Origin: a virus
Lineage: Duplodnaviria; Heunggongvirae; Uroviricota; Caudoviricetes
DNA: 37,359 bases
IMG/VR virus record: IMGVR_UViG_2654587746_000004
Location: 1-37,359 of that record
Reading direction: 5' to 3' (one strand)
Below are positions 2,616 through 11,472 of this stretch, piece by piece. The number at the start of each line of letters is the position of its first letter. Position 1 is the first letter of the stretch. The notes below the pieces were generated by a model, which did no database searches, had not been told where the DNA came from, and worked only from the letters and a program-made list of their open reading frames with translations. Made by a program: the position numbers and the translations under genes.

Positions 2616-4739
2616 TTAAAAGTTTCCCTCTGATAAGAAAGAATAGGTTCCTGGCCCACCTGGAATATTGCATGTCCATGCCTTTGGTTGTCCTGAAGCA
2701 GGTGCGCTATTGATAACACGCTCACCTATATCCCAGAAACCGGATGTAGGTACTGACGAAAGATAAAATGTTGTTTTTTCAACTTGCAACGCGTTTGATG
2801 GCATTCCATATGCACATAGAGAAGGTGAGTTTATGAGTACATTTCCTGAACCATAATTTCTTATACCAACATTTATAGCTGTATCAGTTTCGTATATATA
2901 CACACCACAACTAACATAGCTCCATTTCCCATTACCAGCTAAAGGTGCTGTAGAGTCTGTTTGTCCTGCACCATTAATTATAAACATAAGTTTTGACGCT
3001 GATCCCTGGTCATTGACCCACGCACCAAACCATACAAATTTCCCTTTTAGTTCTGGTGATTTGTTGAGGTCTATCGTTCGTCCCCAAACTCTATCTCCTG
3101 TCGTAACTAAGAATGAATAATTACCAGCATAGATGTTTTGAGTTTTTATCAATGTTCCTGTAGTTCCAGATGCCGCAGTCCAGAGCAACATATTTCGATC
3201 AAGATAGTTAGCAGTTAACTCTCTGTTCGCAATATCTATTAAATGAGCAGTGTCAGGGTTTTGTGTCGCCGGGTCATAACTACCAACGTATCCGATGGAG
3301 TTCACTGTGTTGTTGGCAAGATATAGCCTGTCAGTAACTTTGGACGAAAGATTATTGTGGTACATTGCTAATAAATTATTCACTTTCGATGCGTCTAATA
3401 ACTGATTATTTTCAATCGTCAGGTTTTTCGCATAGTTCGTGAAAATAAATCCGTCTTGGTTAGGTAGCGCGCTGGCGTAGCCAATCGCGGTCTGCTGATT
3501 CCCGCGAATAGATACGGTATCATTAATTTTTGAAAGGTCAGGAATTAATGTAAAATTGTTCGCGATAAGGTGGATATCCGCACGTACTGTAATAGACTCA
3601 GGTACACTATACTGGTAACCAATCTCACCGTTGCGTTCCCAATAGTTATCATCAAGGTTAAGGCCTTTAACCCCGTAAGCCAAAAGTCCGTAGAACTTAT
3701 TTTGCTCTATATTGTTGCCATTAACTCTGACGCTCATACCGCCCTCAGCGTAAGCTGGCGTAAGTAAAACTCCACCGGCTCCGTTACCATAGATACGGCT
3801 GTTGATTATATTAATATTATTGCAGTAACCACCAACATTAATACCGTTACCGGCGTTTTGAAACAACCGGCACCCAATGATGTCAATGGAGTAACCGTTA
3901 ACTAATATTGCGTTGTTATTAGTATTAACCACGTCAATATTTTCTATTTTAATGTGGTTGGCTTCAGTAAGACTGATGCCGTTAGCTGCGTAGCCATTTC
4001 CGTCAAGACCAAAGTCCCTGAACTCGCAGAACGTAATTACCCCATCTTGTTGCGTGATTATCGGTGCCGCTGTACCCGTAGAGAAAATTCTGGACTGATA
4101 TGCGCCAGCACCTCGTATCATGGTGACAGTATTCTTAATCGTAATACCAGGGTCAACAATGAACGCCCCCTCTGGTATAACAATCTCAGTTGGCAACGTA
4201 GCATCATCAATAGCCTTCTGAAATGCAGCTTTGTTCTGAGCACCGGTGTTTCCCTCAGCAAACCCGTAGTCTGTAAGCGTCCTCAGGTCGATAGTTAGCT
4301 TTTTTGAGAGAATGGTCGATGTGCTATCGACAAACTGTGGGTTATGCATGACTAGAGAGTCGCCAAGTGAGTGATCTTCGCTCAGGAGATTGCCCTTAAA
4401 CTGATCTGGATCATACTTTAGCACATTCGGAAAATAGAACTGCTGCGCACCGTATGCATCGTATACAGCCATAGAATGGCCTTGCACAGTTACGAACTTG
4501 GCAATCTGTCCGTTATATACCGGATACCCGCCAGCGTTAATGATGATTGGCTGTGCAACAGGAACGTGAGAACCGTCTTCATTCTCTACATAAACCTGAA
4601 TCTGGTTTTCAGGGTTTACCGGGTCAGTGTCAATTTTACCGATATAAATTTTACCATTGGCTACGGCTTTAAAAGAACGAGCCATAGTGAAGAGTTGCGA
4701 AGGCATCGATACGATCACATTGGCTGTAATGTCTGTCAT
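2616..4739 (-). CDS. Tailspike protein (P22 gp9-like head-binding domain, divergent beta-helix receptor-binding domain)
   Basis: 707-aa ORF; first ~115 aa ([40 protein letters not shown]...) match the remembered P22-family tailspike head-binding domain; remainder is Gly/Asn-rich repetitive beta-helix-like sequence. Confidence 0.9.
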
Positions 4740-4839: not shown

Positions 4840-5718
4840 TCAGTAGTTATGTACTGAAGGAGGCAATTCTTTATTCTTAAGTCTCATCCATGCGGAAAGA
4901 TTCGTTGGTCCGTCTGGCTCATTAATATCAACATCTCGTGTGTGGTTTATTAAAACGTCTCTCGCCATTCCGATAACATACGAGAATTCATGACCGTAGT
5001 CGTAGCATCTGCCGGAATAGTTCGATTGAATTTGTTTTAGCGCCGGATACAGTTCGCGGAATAATGCCTGTGAGCGGTTGGCATAATCCCATAACCATAC
5101 AAGGCTGTTTGCTTCTTTTGCAGAAAGCTCGTTGGTTTTCTTCTCTTGTTTGCCAATGAACTCACCTTCAAGCACTACCCTGTGGATGTACTCTACGGCC
5201 AGCGGGATTTGTTCAATTGAAAGTTCATCAATGCTGTCAATACCAAAACGCTGATGAACCATATTGTATGCATCGTCATAGCGAAGTCCTTTCTTTCCTA
5301 CCAGCATGTTTACTGCATCGCGTAGCGGTGTTCTTTCCTCAACAGTGGTTTTCTTTCCTTTTACATACTCGCCATGTTTGCGAATTGAAGGCAGAACTTC
5401 TGCTGTTACCCACTTGCGGAATTTGTGCGGGACTGAACCTTTATTGACTGCATCGCGGCAGCGCAGAACCAATGTATACATACCTGATTCGCTCACAATG
5501 CTTAGATTCTGCTCACCACCAAGGGTGTAACTTAAAGTTACTCCCTTTTCATCGTCATCAAGTGCAGTAAGCGCCTTGCGTGAGTTAGTCAAATCTAAAG
5601 CATCACAAACATCTTTAGCTACAAACCACGGCTCACCGCACTTGTTGATGACGCGGATTTCACTGTCGCCGAATTTGAAGATGGTGAAATCGTTTTGTGC
5701 CTTTGCTATACTTTTCAT
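4840..5718 (-). CDS. ant: Antirepressor Ant (BRO-N/AntA-type)
   Basis: 292-aa ORF immediately downstream of arc; N-terminal [30 protein letters not shown] resembles BRO-N/antirepressor family; position matches P22 immI. Confidence 0.85.
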
Positions 5719-5750
5719 GTCAATATTTCCTAATCCGATTTGTTGATGCC

Positions 5751-5782
5751 GAAGCCCTGACTGTTACAGCAGTTGGGGCTTC
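5751..5782 (+). other. Imperfect long hairpin in arc-ant intergenic spacer (possible sar antisense RNA terminator / processing site)
   Basis: GAAGCCCTGACTG...CAGTTGGGGCTTC inverted repeat between arc stop and ant start; P22 has the sar antisense RNA here. Promoter not identified. Confidence 0.3.
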
Positions 5783-5786
5783 AACT

Positions 5787-5948: not shown

Positions 5949-5963
5949 GTTCACCTCACAATA

Positions 5964-5982
5964 TAGGTCCACGGTGGACCTA
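5964..5982. promoter_or_regulatory. mnt operator (Omnt) palindrome
   Basis: TAGGTCCACGGTGGACCTA perfect palindrome between arc and mnt starts, matching the P22 Mnt operator as remembered. Confidence 0.8.
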
Positions 5983-5990
5983 TTGAGAAT

Positions 5991-6011
5991 ATAGTAGAGT
6001 GCTTCTATCAT
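5991..6011. promoter_or_regulatory. arc operator (Oarc)
   Basis: ATAGTAGAGTGCTTCTATCAT, matching the remembered P22 Arc operator; overlaps the Pant/Pmnt divergent promoter region. Confidence 0.75.
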
Positions 6012-6038: not shown

Positions 6039-6293
6039 ATGGCTAGAGATGATCCGCACTTTAACTTCCGTATGCCTTTGGAAGTAAGAGAAAAATTGAA
6101 ATTAAGAGCCGAGGCTAACGGAAGGTCAATGAACTCTGAGTTATTACAAATCGTTCAGGATGCACTATCAAAACCATCACCGATTACAGGATATCGCGAC
6201 GAAGCTGAACGCTTGGCTGATCAGCAGGCTGAGCAGTTCAAGGCTATAGTGTTTGAGACACTTAAAAAGATTTATGAAAAGGATTTGAAATGA
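6039..6293 (+). CDS. mnt: Mnt maintenance repressor
   Basis: 84-aa product MARDDPHFNFRMPLEVREKLKLRAEANGRSMNSELLQIVQDAL... closely matches remembered P22 Mnt (ribbon-helix-helix). Confidence 0.92.
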   Translation: MARDDPHFNFRMPLEVREKLKLRAEANGRSMNSELLQIVQDALSKPSPITGYRDEAERLADQQAEQFKAIVFETLKKIYEKDLK

Positions 6294-6625
6294 GATTTCT
6301 ATCACTGTTCTTGTTAGCAGTTGTCTCTTCTTCCAGTGCTGAGCTGCGCGAGCTTCAAACGGGTAATGACCTTCTTTACAACATTCAACAAGGTAAAAAG
6401 GGTGATGATTTTTCATCGCTTTACATTACTGGATATTTGCGCGGAGTAACTGACTCATTGATACTAATTGGTTCTCTATGTCCTCCTGATGGCGTTGACA
6501 TGTATCAATACACCGATATCGTTGAGAAATATCTAAACAAAAACCCAGAATCAAGAAATGAGAGTGCAGTTATACTAACCGCCCTAGCAGTAGGAAAAAC
6601 ATTTCCGTGCAAAAAGAATCAATAA
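6290..6625 (+). CDS. Secreted (signal-peptide) protein of unknown function; possible Rap1a/Tai4-like periplasmic immunity-type fold (unverified)
   Basis: 111-aa ORF; ATG overlaps mnt stop (ATGA); N-terminus MRFLSLFLLAVVSSSSA looks like a Sec signal peptide; mature part has two Cys (..SLCPPDG.. and ..FPCKKNQ) and a GYLRGVTD motif; lower GC than flanking phage genes. Confidence 0.6.
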   Translation: MRFLSLFLLAVVSSSSAELRELQTGNDLLYNIQQGKKGDDFSSLYITGYLRGVTDSLILIGSLCPPDGVDMYQYTDIVEKYLNKNPESRNESAVILTALAVGKTFPCKKNQ

Positions 6626-6640
6626 CAATAAGGGCTTAAA

Positions 6641-7030
6641 ATGAAATTGATTATAGCAATGGCTTTCCTTGTCTTCTCGTTTTCTGTCTCAGCAGAGTGC
6701 TGGGTCGTTGGAGATATGCACGGAATAAGCTATTCAGAACGAAATAATTTTCAACCGGAAGAAGATGGTTTTAGTGGAACATTCATCATTAAGACAAACG
6801 GTGAAGATGCCAGTATCACATATTCTGGGACGGATGCGGGCGGCATGGCTTACAAAGCATTGTCTAAAAACTCCATCATTGGAATCGGCGCGAATGGCGA
6901 AACTCAACGAGTTATCGACTCATGGGTAATACATCCTAATGGAACAGTTTTAATGTCGAAAACCATTTCTGGTTATGGGAATATGGATTCAACCAAAGCT
7001 TTTGTTGGAAAAGTAAAAAGAAAATGTTAA
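6641..7030 (+). CDS. Secreted (signal-peptide) protein of unknown function, predicted beta-rich
   Basis: 129-aa ORF 15 bp after the previous gene with AAGGG upstream; N-terminus MKLIIAMAFLVFSFSVSA is signal-peptide-like; mature protein starts EC.. and ends ..KRKC (terminal Cys pair); Gly/Ser/Thr-rich; low GC. Confidence 0.6.
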   Translation: MKLIIAMAFLVFSFSVSAECWVVGDMHGISYSERNNFQPEEDGFSGTFIIKTNGEDASITYSGTDAGGMAYKALSKNSIIGIGANGETQRVIDSWVIHPNGTVLMSKTISGYGNMDSTKAFVGKVKRKC

Positions 7031-7054
7031 CGATTGAATCCAATTCCCCATACG

Positions 7055-8896
7055 TTACTGCTGTGTTGCCTCAGTAGCAAGCAGCGGCCTGATGGCATTT
7101 GCAGCGTTACTCAACGCTCTTTCATAGGCTGGCGTTCCAGCTTTAGTGTTTGCCAGACGTAAGAGAGCATTCCTTGCTGCTTTGGACTCATACAAACGCA
7201 TCATTGCACCAAAGCCAGCCTCAAGCCCCATTGATACACCAAGAGTCGCAGTTGCGCCAATCGTCCTTATCCTGTTGGCTTGTGATTGCCCCGTCTGAGT
7301 TACTACATTTGCGGTGTCTGACCTTGCTGTTTGCTGTAGAACTTCATGAAGAGCATCAAGCTCTTTCATGTGCTTTCCAGAAAAAATAGTGTTGTAAATT
7401 TCACCGCCTGACTGAGATTTCAGCTTATTAACTTCAGTGATGAACTTGGCTGGAGAGTCACCGGCCTTTTCCGCTATTTTGCTGACGTAAGCTGCACGCA
7501 TAGCATCTTTCCCTTTATCATCCAGGGCGCTCCATATTCGTTTCACGTCAGATGGTTTTCTGCTTAATACAACGGTATTTATAAGTTCAGGACTGGCTTC
7601 ACTGCTTGCCTTGTTGAGCTTGTTAGCAATGTTTTTATTAAGCACCTTATTATAAACGTTTGCATAATCAGAATTTGCTTTAAGGTATTTTGCTGCGTCT
7701 GATGCACCGAGGTTTTTAGCAACTGCGTTACGAAGGTCTTTTGACATTGCATTCTCTACCATATTGGTAGCTGCTTTTGCCTGGTTGGGGAAGACCATAG
7801 CATCTCCCTGAACATTAGATCTAAATGCTGTTCTGTGCTGACGCAAGAGATCAAACGTAACATCCAAATCAGTTGCAGGGTTTGCTAATTCTTCACGTAG
7901 GTTACGCAAGGATGTAAGCAGGCTTTGATTGGCAGACGTCCCAAGCCGTTCCTGTCTTGCGATCGCTGTATTCAGAGCATTCATGGTATTTGTGGTATCA
8001 ACTGCGGCATTACCCATTTTATTGGTGACGTCATTGATAACAGCGCCAGCGGCATCCTTCCGCCCCCTTAACGTGGTGGTAAGAGATTTCACCACATCAT
8101 CAGGGTTGTACTCACCAAAACGGTCAAAATAATTACTTACCAGCTTACTACGCGTTGCATATTGCTCCGCTCGCTTTGAGCCTGTCCCGAGCAAAGCCCC
8201 CTCGGCATCCTGAGTTAGGCCGCGAGTGAAAGCATTTTTCGGCGGGATAACATCAGATGTCATTGGTGTCACGCCCATCGATTCTGATGTGGCAATTTTC
8301 TTCGCCACTTCTGGCGCAATATCACCTTTTATAGCCGTTATTCCACGCCCTATTCCCTTTGCTGCTGCGGAAAGAACACCCTGAGTGGCAAGGTTAACTC
8401 CGGCATTTTTAGCTGCATTTTGTGCGAAATCGCCTTTCTGATTTGCGGCCTCTGCCAGTGATCCAATAGCCATGCTTCCTGCCGTTCCAACTCCTGGAAC
8501 TAAATACCCACCAATTGTTTCACCGGCTTGCGCGTAGGGGTCTGTCGGTCTGTCTACTGGACGATAAACATCATCCAAAACCTTGGGTCCACCAAGCCCC
8601 TGACTGATTGCATTAATCAGACTTGCGCCGCCCTGCAATACGTCAAATGGTATGTTTACCAGACCACGACCAGCCTGTTCTGCAATTTGCCCTGCACTTT
8701 GACCACCAGTGAGCCAATCGCCAGCTTGTTGCATCAATGATGGTTCTTCCCGTGTTGGTGCATTATTGGCCTGATTAACTGTTTGTTGCTGAACAGCCTG
8801 ACCAGCAAAATACTCATCAATGGCGGTGCCAATATCTTCGGTGCTCGTACCATCAGGAAAGGTAAATGTCTTACCGTTTGCAGTTACTTTCATCAT
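7055..8896 (-). CDS. Ejection (internal virion) protein, P22 gp16-like
   Basis: 613-aa Ala/Gly-rich ORF last in the ejection-protein run; size and position match P22 gp16. Confidence 0.8.
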
Positions 8897-10308
8897 TCCA
8901 CCGTAAATTGAATGCCTGATTTTGAGGTATATGATCCAACCTGATTCCGTGGTTCTCCTGAAGGTGTCGAATCTTGTGCTGGCGCTGCGTCAGTATTCAT
9001 TGACATATACCGCTTAACGGCACTCCCCAATGATTCACCTTTTTTAACATCCAACCCCAATATCTGACCGCCATTACGCGATTGTCCAGGGTTGCCATTC
9101 GCGCTCATCCACTCGGCTTTAAACTCATTAAACTGCGCGTTTCGTCGCTCAAGGTTTGCCATTGCATCAAGCCATCTTGCGACCGTCTCAGGGTTATCCA
9201 TGTCAGTTGGCGCACCCTGTCGAACGATCTCAACGTCTTTATCCGTTGCTGGGCCGGGAGGTAGGAATTTAAGAACCTGACTGTTAACAAGGGCATTTTG
9301 GCGAATGCGCAAATCACGCAATGTTGTATCGCTTCCGGTAAGTTTTGCGAACATGTTCTGTGCGTTACCGAACAAACCTGTCGTTGGTTTTTCTGCTCTG
9401 AACTGTTGAGCAAGCGCACTCATAGAATTGGCTGAGTTTGATGATGCTGTAGCATTGTTTACAGCCGTCTCGATGCCTTTTTCCATGTTTACTGACAGCT
9501 TAGGTGCTTCGCTAATCAACTGCTGAGCCTTTTCCTGCGCTTGCTGCATCTTAAACCCGAACTCTTGCTGATCCAGAGCCAAACGTTGTGCTGCGATATT
9601 GTGCCCAGTCATTGCTGACTGATAGGAAAGGTTTTGTCCTCTCGCCTGAAGTGCTTCACCAGCCTGATTGCTGCGGATTGTCTCTGCCAGCCTGCCTCGG
9701 TCAATTTCACGACCAGCCATCTTATCCTGAACAGCAAACGCCTTTTCTGGTCCAAGCGCACCGAGAGACATAGTAGTCAGCATGTGTGATAGCTGCTCTG
9801 GATTCTGGATACCTGTCTGAATCATCCAGTCAGCATTAGCACCAACGCGATTTAACCTGTCCTTGTTGTCAGTAATGAATTTACTGTAGGCTTCCGGCCC
9901 CTGAGAAAGAGCGACGTTAGCCCTCATGGCTAAATCGCCCATATCGTTGCGTTGCTGATCATTAAGACCGGAAAACGCCTGTTGTGCCTGTGCAACAAAC
10001 GCTGGATTTTCCTGGGCAAACTTAAATAGTCCCGATGGATCACCAGAAGCCCATGCATCAGCGTGAACCTTATTGAACGCACTAATAGCTTTCTGTTGCT
10101 GTTCCTGATTGTAAATATCAGCAACTCCAGCCAGACCACGTAACGCGGTCAGACCAACGTTATTTGCACCTGAGCGAGCCAGTTCATTGTTTTCGCGGAT
10201 CAGACCAAGCGTTGCGTTAATGTCGCTTGCCTTTGGCGCATTCTCATTTTGCGTACCGATGCCAGCCAGAAAACCACCAGAATTAATACCTTGTTGCCAC
10301 GTAGCCAT
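8893..10308 (-). CDS. Ejection protein, P22 gp20-like
   Basis: 471-aa ORF (same length as P22 gp20) in conserved order gp7-gp20-gp16; Gln/Ala-rich. Confidence 0.8.
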
Positions 10309-10318
10309 TGATTACCCC

Positions 10319-11011
10319 TTAAAACAACGAGCCAAGCAGACCAAGACCGCCGCCGATCGCAGCCCCCCACGGAGTTGATGAACCAATTAATTTCGCAAGT
10401 CCAGCCCCAGCAATAGCACCAGACGCACCTCCGCCAATAGCAGATTGCATTGCTGATGGTCTGTTGGCATTTGCCGCTGCAAGAGCCGCACTTTGCTGCG
10501 AAATCTGACTCATGTTGTTGGCATATGTCTGCCCTGCGTTTGCCTGACCTTGCAGAGCACCAAGCCCAACGTTTGCCAGATTCTGGTAGTTGTTCATCTG
10601 ACCAGACAGCCACTGCTGACCAAGCGTTGGTGCGATTGTTGCTAACTGATTACCGGTTGCAGTGGAACCCAATCCACCTGTTGCTTCCGCTGCCGCCAGA
10701 CTCTGATAGCGAGCCTGACCAGCAAGATCTTTGTACTGCTGAGAGTTGTAATACTGGTTAAGTGCCTGACCTTGCCCCTCCAGAGACGATAAGTTCTCGA
10801 GGCTGCCGACATACTTATCAGCCAGAGGAGTAAACGGCTTCAGGTTATTCATGATGGTGTTGAACTGCTGATTTTGCAGGTCTGCGGCATACTTCTGGGC
10901 TTCTGCTGCATACTTTGCGCTTTTATCAGAGCTGCCACCTTTCCCGCCTTTTTCAGGGCAATAAGGTTCCTCGCCGCGCAGTTTTCTGCCCAGCTTAAAT
11001 GCATATAACAT
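10319..11011 (-). CDS. Ejection protein, P22 gp7-like
   Basis: 230-aa ORF; N-terminus MLYAFKLGRKLRGEEPYCPEKGGKGG and Gly-rich C-terminus as in P22 gp7 (229 aa). Confidence 0.8.
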   Translation of the reverse strand: MLYAFKLGRKLRGEEPYCPEKGGKGGSSDKSAKYAAEAQKYAADLQNQQFNTIMNNLKPFTPLADKYVGSLENLSSLEGQGQALNQYYNSQQYKDLAGQARYQSLAAAEATGGLGSTATGNQLATIAPTLGQQWLSGQMNNYQNLANVGLGALQGQANAGQTYANNMSQISQQSAALAAANANRPSAMQSAIGGGASGAIAGAGLAKLIGSSTPWGAAIGGGLGLLGSLF

Positions 11012-11013
11012 GG

Positions 11014-11472
11014 CTATCTCCCGTGATTCAGGAAGTCGATTAGTTCTTCGCGTGTGGCGCTGTAAAAAGTCACGTCATCCACGCCTTTGAAGTATTTCTT
11101 GATGGTTCCTACACGCTTAAGGCCAATCATTGCGCAGTACATCTGACCGTGTCGGAATTTGCGTGCAGCGAACGATGTTACGCACTGAACGGTGGTGTTA
11201 GTCAGAATGTATCTCCAGAACGCCAGCCCGATTTCCTTGCTGAAGCCGCGAATCTCTGGCAGGTACATGGCGTGGCAATCGAATGTCAGCGGCTGAATCT
11301 CCTGATAGTAAACAATGCCGCCAAACTGACCGTGCACGTTCACCTCAAAGTAACGGCATTCAGGTTTGTAGTCGTATCCATCACCGTTGTTGCTCCCGGC
11401 GATAATGTCAGGGTGATTTCCGACTGCTTCTATCAGGTCGATGTTTCGCGTTGGTTTGAATGTAATCATCAC
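11014..11472 (-). CDS. Tail accessory / DNA stabilization protein, P22 gp14-like
   Basis: 152-aa ORF between tail needle and gp7, the gp14 position in P22-like phages. Confidence 0.65.

Follow-up and report, generated by a model that had tools for sequence, protein, structure and literature searches.

Two small phage proteins, Sim of P1 and Spackle of T4, are exported to the periplasm by the Sec pathway and block the entry of superinfecting phages; Spackle inhibits the virion cell-wall hydrolase (gp5 lysozyme). The SieA protein of P22 (types A to C), made from the prophage, also works in the envelope to keep out P22-like phages, but it is an inner-membrane protein of 162-164 amino acids (aa) with three transmembrane helices and no signal peptide, and it acts on the gp16/gp20 conduit from the inner membrane (PMC10883804). 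Its gene, located between mnt and gene 16, is carried by 22 of 66 P22-like phages (PMC10883804), so other genes must fill this slot in the rest. Here we describe a 37,359-nucleotide stretch of viral DNA (positions 1 to 37,359 of IMG/VR record IMGVR_UViG_2654587746_000004; hereafter the window), a P22-like prophage of E. coli in which two adjacent open reading frames, ORF1 and ORF2, occupy the sieA slot. On balance we consider it probable that they are two separable accessory genes for secreted proteins, transcribed with mnt, of which one would provide immunity to a type VI amidase and the other phage exclusion.

The closest described relatives of the ORF1 product are Rap1a (SMA2260) of Serratia marcescens and Tai4 of Agrobacterium tumefaciens. 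Proteins of this 'Tai4a' fold are secreted, dimeric and helical, and sterically block Ssp1-like Tae4 endopeptidases; Rap1a has a cleaved signal peptide and needs its Cys78-Cys122 disulfide for folding, and orphan Rap1a genes in other bacteria (e.g. Cronobacter sakazakii) have been taken as a likely arms-race counter-measure (PMC3852654). The closest described relatives of ORF2 are Hex of phage 434 and gp38 of Sf6. In 434 lysogens PRM drives a joint cI-hex transcript, and the hex gene shares bases with the stop codon of cI (PMC3564112). According to the same paper, which cites Susskind and Botstein (1980) for the result, Salmonella lambda imm434 lysogens exclude P22 while hex- lysogens do not.

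The sieA slot encodes two predicted secreted proteins

The slot and its borders are made up as follows (window coordinates and strand):

6039-6293 (+): mnt, 84 aa, maintenance repressor of antirepressor expression (Pfam Arc, E = 3.7e-28; Repressor_Mnt, E = 1.3e-11)
6290-6625 (+): ORF1, orphan Rap1a/Tai4a-family protein, 111 aa; predicted signal peptide in codons 1-17 (6290-6340)
6641-7030 (+): ORF2, Hex-family (phrog_2651) protein, 129 aa; predicted signal peptide in codons 1-18 (6641-6694)
7055-8896 (-): gp16-type ejection (DNA transfer) protein, forming the right edge of the slot

The gene order in the window is tailspike(-) ant(-) arc(-) mnt(+) ORF1(+) ORF2(+) gp16(-), and that in P22 is 9(-) ant(-) arc(-) mnt(+) ORF59(+) sieA(+) 16(-). 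As this architecture is shared, a preliminary description of the DNA, made from its letters with no database searches, was correct in placing the two genes in the sieA slot; they stand where P22 has ORF59 and sieA, on the same strand as sieA. The lengths of 111 and 129 aa given there were also found to be accurate. In RefSeq the gp16-type protein is named 'DNA transfer protein' or 'P22-gp16 family phage DNA ejection protein'. On the minus strand, 6290-7030 contained only short ORFs (of at most 79 aa), and no second copy of ORF1 or ORF2 was present in the window.

ORF1 and ORF2 are real genes under purifying selection. The ratio of non-synonymous to synonymous substitution rates (dN/dS) for mature ORF2 was 0.10-0.14 against the copies in Emek and O111, while mature ORF1 compared with the Serratia copies gave proportions of non-synonymous (pN) and synonymous (pS) differences of 0.11-0.12 and approximately 0.85, the latter being saturated.

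Signal peptides were judged with a von Heijne-type heuristic (charged n-region, hydrophobic core and an allowed -3/-1 site), which agreed with the preliminary description in assigning one to each protein. The hydrophobic cores had mean Kyte-Doolittle values, over 8 residues, of 2.95 (ORF1) and 3.16 (ORF2), and the predicted cleavage sites, SSA↓E in ORF1 and VSA↓E in ORF2, have small residues at -3 and -1. The heuristic was likewise positive in 7/7 relatives of ORF1 and 47/47 relatives of ORF2, among which the sequence of the peptide drifts. No lipobox was found in ORF1 or ORF2. Both proteins are predicted to be exported. Each mature protein contains exactly two cysteines and is hydrophilic (grand average of hydropathy, -0.39 for ORF1 and -0.35 for ORF2), unlike the membrane protein SieA, to which neither has homology (BLASTP against P22 SieA, E = 3.2 and 6.5).

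ORF1 is an orphan member of the Rap1a/Tai4a family

The Pfam model of the Rap1a immunity proteins (PF18602) matched ORF1 over its whole length (model positions 1-90) with 55.3 bits (cutoff 27.7; E = 9.7e-15), confirming a likeness that the preliminary description had suggested. Nothing was returned for ORF1 by NCBIfam or PADLOC. The family assignment is not new, as RefSeq uses the name 'Rap1a/Tai family immunity protein'. The predicted fold is compact and all-helical, as in Rap1a. The two cysteines of the 94-aa mature protein, Cys64 and Cys107, are strictly conserved among both close and distant relatives and align with the Tai4 cysteines, at a spacing of 43 compared with 44 in Rap1a, and are predicted from this pattern to form a disulfide. 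Rap1a itself was beyond the reach of sequence searches started from ORF1 or from a Serratia paralogue, and no residue alignment was obtained in which its active-site-blocking Gln84 could be located; Gln73 of ORF1, which is invariant among the relatives and opens the helix that follows the cysteine loop, is only suggestive in this respect.

ORF1 differs from Rap1a and Tai4 in its low identity to them (26-27%) and in its setting, since it lies in the immI operon of a prophage, joined to mnt, whereas their genes sit beside an Ssp1/Tae4 effector gene in a type VI cluster. The prophage and its flanks were found to contain no type VI or effector gene; the neighbours of ORF1 there are mnt, the Hex-like gene and gp16, and ORF1 is in this sense an orphan. 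It resembles other orphan type VI immunity genes (Rap1a of C. sakazakii, and those of islets and arrays), which also have no accompanying effector and are thought to guard against the effectors of other strains, but is unlike them in being carried by a temperate phage and joined to a repressor gene. Its carriage by a temperate phage means that resistance would be acquired by lysogenic conversion. No account of Rap1a-like genes in the mnt context of P22-like phages was found in the literature.

Relatives of ORF1 with 60-80% identity which could be placed (all except the one at 60%) were located directly after mnt in P22-like prophages. Those placed have 65-79% identity and come from E. coli, Silvania confinis, Serratia fonticola and a Serratia sp.; their start codons mostly overlap mnt, with a 17-nucleotide (nt) gap instead in the Serratia sp. 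A second lineage, from E. coli and Silvania, carries a relative with 65-67% identity. In S. fonticola the relative of ORF1 is followed by a second Rap1a paralogue at 32% identity, while in Serratia sp. JSRIV002 it stands alone. The genome-collection scan used patterns specific to the ORF1 subfamily and for that reason yielded one locus.

More distant Rap1a-like genes (31-37% identity) were found on 16 environmental viral contigs and in phage DSL-LC04 (OR003939; 61.5 kb). In the latter the gene is located among small early genes (2932-3258 of its locus), and the phage has its own DNA polymerase and primase. It is apparently virulent, with no integrase annotated in its first 50 kb (72 of 85 features).

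ORF2 belongs with the Hex proteins on sequence comparison

The preliminary description had recognised no family for the second protein, a statement that did not survive database comparison. ORF2 matched phrog_2651 with an E value of 2.3e-60, and 434 Hex matched the same PHROG with 1.4e-58. A tblastn search of a 2.3-Gb phage set with ORF2 returned Sf6 gene 38 and the 434 "repressor protection protein" (Hex) at E = 3e-7, and BLASTP aligned ORF2 with Hex over the full length of both (29% identity, 133 columns, E = 8e-15). Judged by these matches, ORF2 is a homologue of 434 Hex and Sf6 gp38. The proteins are collinear and share a predicted signal peptide, a Cys-Trp pair after the cleavage site and a C-terminal Cys, and ORF2, like hex, probably lies in an operon headed by a lysogeny repressor. 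The position in the operon differs: hex directly follows cI in the PRM operon, where lambda has rexAB, and the hex-type gene overlaps the cI stop in 434, Sf6 and Klebsiella aerogenes prophages, whereas ORF2 comes third in immI, behind mnt and ORF1, and lies beside gene 16.

The mature ORF2 protein has 111 aa, with Cys20-Trp21 near its start and Cys129 as its last residue. C20, W21, G28, G81, G123 and C129 are invariant in 47 family sequences, C20 also in 53 more distant members, and an allowed cleavage site always falls two residues before the invariant Cys-Trp. Members of the family are single-domain proteins of approximately 125-140 residues and carry a conserved Cys that is either the last residue or only a few positions before it. 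The RefSeq protein WP_002432306.1 starts at an internal Met (6716; 104 aa) and so lacks both the signal peptide and the Cys-Trp pair; alignment with the family speaks for 6641 as the true start.

An AlphaFold2 model of ORF2 is an eight-stranded beta-barrel (predicted local distance difference test, pLDDT, 91; predicted template modelling score, pTM, 0.79). Its Cys pair, its KRKC terminus, the shortness of its strands and its small size together suggest a soluble periplasmic barrel in which the two cysteines would tie the first strand to the last. An eight-stranded outer-membrane barrel of the NspA, OmpW, OmpX or PagP type, which would have membrane-spanning strands and a C-terminal aromatic sorting signal, was considered as the alternative architecture. 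Searches for a described counterpart were otherwise negative: ORF2 had no match in Pfam, NCBIfam or PADLOC, nothing in the PDB sequence search with either the single sequence or a 47-sequence profile, and no match at E ≤ 0.001 in the BFVD Foldseek search. Among 53 sampled Hex-family members, Pfam (E ≤ 0.01) gave no family-consistent match, only three unrelated ones to single members. An identity as a lysozyme inhibitor of the MliC, PliC or Ivy type, proposed for checking in the preliminary description, was not supported: there was no Pfam match at E ≤ 1, and structural comparison gave nothing specific.

The Hex family was counted as 111 clusters at 90% identity, and a HMMER search of 1.84 billion representatives enlarged it to 219 clusters at 50%. 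It was found in Enterobacterales and Aeromonas, and its genes mostly stand behind that of a lysogeny repressor. In P22-like prophages its gene adjoins gp16 (here, in Emek and in E. coli O111:H- 11128), while the Aeromonas and Cedecea genes sit in mobile-element remnants. No toxin gene was found beside the non-phage homologues; the neighbour is an integrase fragment in Aeromonas and a secreted protein of unassigned family in Cedecea. Of 5426 complete E. coli genomes, 148 have ORF2-like DNA beside gp16, and 25 of these also carry ORF1. The preliminary description had treated the two genes as a single module. They are indeed adjacent, and an ORF1-type and ORF2-type pair recurs in the divergent lineage (65-67% and 48-49% identity, respectively), but each gene also occurs without the other, which makes them two often-linked cassettes rather than one obligate system.

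Published work on Hex and its site of action

The single biochemical study of Hex describes a cytoplasmic role, in which it blocks the RecA-stimulated autocleavage of the 434 and P22 repressors (PMC3564112). Deletion of hex raised spontaneous induction 30-fold, in recA+ cells only, and a 61-residue fragment, sHex, inhibited cleavage of both repressors in vitro and, in vivo, gave partial complementation of the deletion (PMC3564112). Guanidine was used to obtain this fragment from an insoluble pellet, and overproduction of full-length Hex killed the cells (PMC3564112).

When the published sHex DNA was mapped on 434 it was found to encode residues 19-79 of the 134-aa Hex (2555-2737 of its locus). 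Its first residue follows the predicted signal-peptidase site (ANS↓ECW), and by comparison with the ORF2 model it takes in about half of the predicted barrel. The start codon used in the Hex paper is 24 codons too far upstream, and the paper leaves the origin of the fragment ends unexplained and makes no mention of a signal sequence (PMC3564112). Since the export signal and the Cys pair are found throughout the family, a cytoplasmic site of action appears doubtful and a role in exclusion at the level of the envelope more natural.

Control region, expression signals and mosaic structure

The remaining features of the region are the following:

2616-4739 (-): tailspike
4840-5718 (-): ant
5720-5786 (+): sar antisense RNA (Rfam RF00262, 65.6 bits)
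between sar and the palindrome in feature order (-): arc
5963-5983: perfect palindrome ATAGGTCCAC-G-GTGGACCTAT (100% complementary), adjoining divergent promoters
5983-6011 (+): Pmnt-like sigma-70 promoter TTGAGA-17-TATCAT; consensus match only, at a position that fits the P22 immI layout
6016 to 5988 (-): Pant-like promoter overlapping the Pmnt-like site; consensus match only
6495-6522 (+): promoter-like site TTGACA-16-TATCGT within ORF1 (10/12 consensus matches)
6690-7054: mosaic block with 95-97% DNA identity to Salmonella phage Emek, ST-35 and approximately 123 further E. coli genomes
6974-7052: imperfect 19-nt inverted repeat (84% complementary) covering the 3' end of ORF2 and the 24-nt gap to the convergent gp16 stop

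The sar RNA and the perfect palindrome, which we take to be the P22 Mnt operator, identify a genuine immI region whose control region appears intact. The TGA stop of mnt (6291-6293) and the ATG of ORF1 (6290-6292) share the sequence ATGA, as noted in the preliminary description, and AGGA (6280-6283) lies six bases upstream of the ATG. A spacer of 15 nt separates ORF2 from ORF1, with AAGGG at 6630-6634 ahead of ORF2. No terminator-like site was found between mnt, ORF1 and ORF2. The two genes are probably co-transcribed with mnt from Pmnt in the lysogen, a view that derives from this arrangement and from analogy with 434 cI-hex. The repeat at 6974-7052 (RNA fold of -21.3 kcal/mol, z = -1.79, of weak significance and with no U-tract after it) could act weakly as a transcript end in both directions, or have arisen by chance.

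The slot is richer in AT than its surroundings, as had been stated, by a modest margin: the GC content is 39.0% in ORF1 and 39.7% in ORF2, compared with 40.8% in mnt, 43.8% in ant, 47.0% in gp16 and 47.2% in the whole window. The DNA is 88.5% identical to P22 immI as far as 6265, approximately 28 nt before the mnt stop (joint at 6265/6266). A second joint lies at about 6690, within the signal-peptide codons of ORF2, where the Hex-like block of the Emek/O111 type begins (matches start at query position 401 of both 6290-7054 and 6290-7030). From the position of these joints, the Rap1a cassette brings its own mnt 3' end and ORF2 leader.

Several complete E. coli chromosomes contain the segment 6000-7200 with 100% identity; that of strain 631 has the prophage beside tRNA-Arg and intS. 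In E. coli strain C (from cow's milk), which is identical to the window over the compared 1.2-kb segment (mnt, ORF1, ORF2 and the gp16 3' end), the prophage ends right after gp16 and is followed by an acyltransferase pseudogene, torI and dsdC; this remnant retains int, tailspike, ant, arc, mnt, ORF1 and ORF2. Several other identical genomes are likewise annotated 'hypothetical protein (x2)' and may mark the same remnant.

Other envelope proteins occupy the slot in related prophages, namely SieA in P22 and a lipoprotein in E. coli O111:H- 11128, and the locus fits a variable slot for envelope-protection genes. The O111:H- 11128 lipoprotein (139 aa; 3416-3835 (-) of its locus) is encoded between mnt and the Hex-like gene on the opposite strand, and has the lipobox LLSGC, a weak PEGA-domain match and membership of phrog_6823, a family with no assigned function. 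In Serratia sp. JSRIV002 the protein at the gp16 position has 933 aa with an SLT lytic transglycosylase domain (8536-11337 (-) of its locus), from which it follows that ejection proteins adjoining the slot can include cell-wall hydrolases.

Possible functions of ORF1 and ORF2

If the slot holds genes for type VI amidase immunity and phage exclusion, the transcript from Pmnt, a promoter active in the lysogen, would span mnt, ORF1 and ORF2, with translation of ORF1 coupled to that of mnt. ORF1 would be exported by Sec, form its Cys64-Cys107 disulfide and reside in the periplasm, probably as a dimer, where it would bind an incoming Ssp1-like (Tae4-family) endopeptidase from the type VI system of a rival and sterically block its active site; the lysogen would gain resistance to that attack. 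ORF2, a small periplasmic beta-barrel with a disulfide joining its N- and C-terminal cysteines, would hinder the entry of P22-like phages and would functionally replace the inner-membrane SieA. What was observed, and underlies this reading, is the structure of the genes, their family memberships and synteny, the predicted folds, the conservation of the signal peptides and the purifying selection; export, co-transcription from Pmnt in the lysogen, the identity of the neutralised effector, the exclusion activity and the step at which it would act are what we infer.

Several points weigh against it. Export was called with a heuristic; the exclusion phenotype is known from a second-hand statement about a protein 29% identical to ORF2; and the biochemistry of Hex was interpreted as cytoplasmic. 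ORF1 shares only about a quarter of its residues with the characterised Rap1a and Tai4, and immunity proteins of the Rap1a type are highly effector-specific (PMC3852654), which bears on the effector presumed for ORF1. The promoter-like site at 6495-6522, a consensus match only, could drive ORF2 apart from Pmnt. The benefit of type VI immunity is also less obvious in apparently virulent phages such as DSL-LC04. Taken as a whole, the preliminary interpretation of a periplasmic module expressed in the lysogen is partly supported; it missed the relation to Hex and overstated how tightly the two genes belong together. It had named homology to a characterised family of unrelated function as a sign that would tell against it, and by that measure the Hex relationship complicates the picture, as an exclusion phenotype and a RecA-related cytoplasmic activity have been reported for the one member studied (PMC3564112).

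ORF2 might instead be a second orphan immunity protein, or an inhibitor of some other periplasmic toxin (a type VI effector, a lysozyme-type enzyme or a bacteriocin), which would make the slot an anti-toxin islet. We consider this rather unlikely: besides the lack of MliC, PliC or Ivy matches, the match to PhiA ranks 33rd among generic barrels, the family occurs after cI or mnt or in mobile-element remnants and never beside a recognisable toxin gene in the loci examined, and the one member that has been studied is credited, in the secondary account, with an exclusion phenotype. The more general proposal that phage-borne Rap1a/Tai4a-like and Hex-like proteins are periplasmic anti-phage factors, a soluble alternative to SieA and not mainly defences in bacterial warfare, appears unlikely to us, although it would also explain the Rap1a-like genes of apparently virulent phages. 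The related reading that both proteins serve superinfection exclusion is about as unlikely. In either case the Rap1a-like protein would have been co-opted by phages to inhibit a cell-wall hydrolase of incoming virions, as T4 Spackle does, and the Hex-like barrel would hinder the periplasmic conduit of the ejection proteins. Such a division of labour would suit the exact sieA position beside ejection-protein genes, the recurrence of the pair in two divergent lineages, the presence of Rap1a-like genes among the early genes of apparently virulent phages, the hydrolase (SLT) domain that a related ejection protein bears in Serratia sp., and the exclusion of P22 attributed to Hex (PMC3564112, as cited there).

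That ORF2 works as published for Hex, in the cytoplasm, blocking RecA-stimulated autocleavage and so stabilising lysogeny, is improbable in our estimation, even with the recA-dependent rise in induction on hex deletion and the activity of sHex in vitro and in vivo in its favour (PMC3564112). A signal peptide and Cys pair in 47/47 members do not suit a cytoplasmic protein, and the fragment on which the model was built starts at the predicted cleavage site, spans about half the barrel and was refolded from guanidine, the full-length protein being toxic on overproduction (PMC3564112). ORF2, moreover, follows mnt and not the main repressor, and the remnant copies have no repressor among their called neighbours. 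The mosaic nature of the slot could also be taken to indicate that ORF1 and ORF2 are hitch-hiking or decaying passengers with no current function, but we give this very little credence given the strong purifying selection, the structural motifs invariant across both families, and the retention of identical genes in more than 20 genomes of varied sources, including a truncated prophage remnant.

Immunity to a type VI amidase together with phage exclusion thus remains our preferred reading of the slot. If ORF1 works as its family does, lysogeny by a P22-like phage would make E. coli resist the type VI amidase of a rival, and, if true, the spread of the phage would be tied directly to bacterial contact warfare in the gut. 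A literature search turned up no paper reporting such resistance from P22-like phages. For Hex, the link to ORF2 would give a poorly understood exclusion phenotype from 1980 a testable physical basis, a secreted barrel closed by a disulfide, and it indicates that the fragment from which the cytoplasmic RecA model was derived starts at a predicted signal-peptidase site. The locus also gives an indication of what may occupy the slot in part of the two-thirds of P22-like phages without sieA. Its interest lies in a type VI immunity gene that may be gained by lysogenic conversion, joined to a repressor gene, and in sequence evidence suggesting that the Hex family is secreted.

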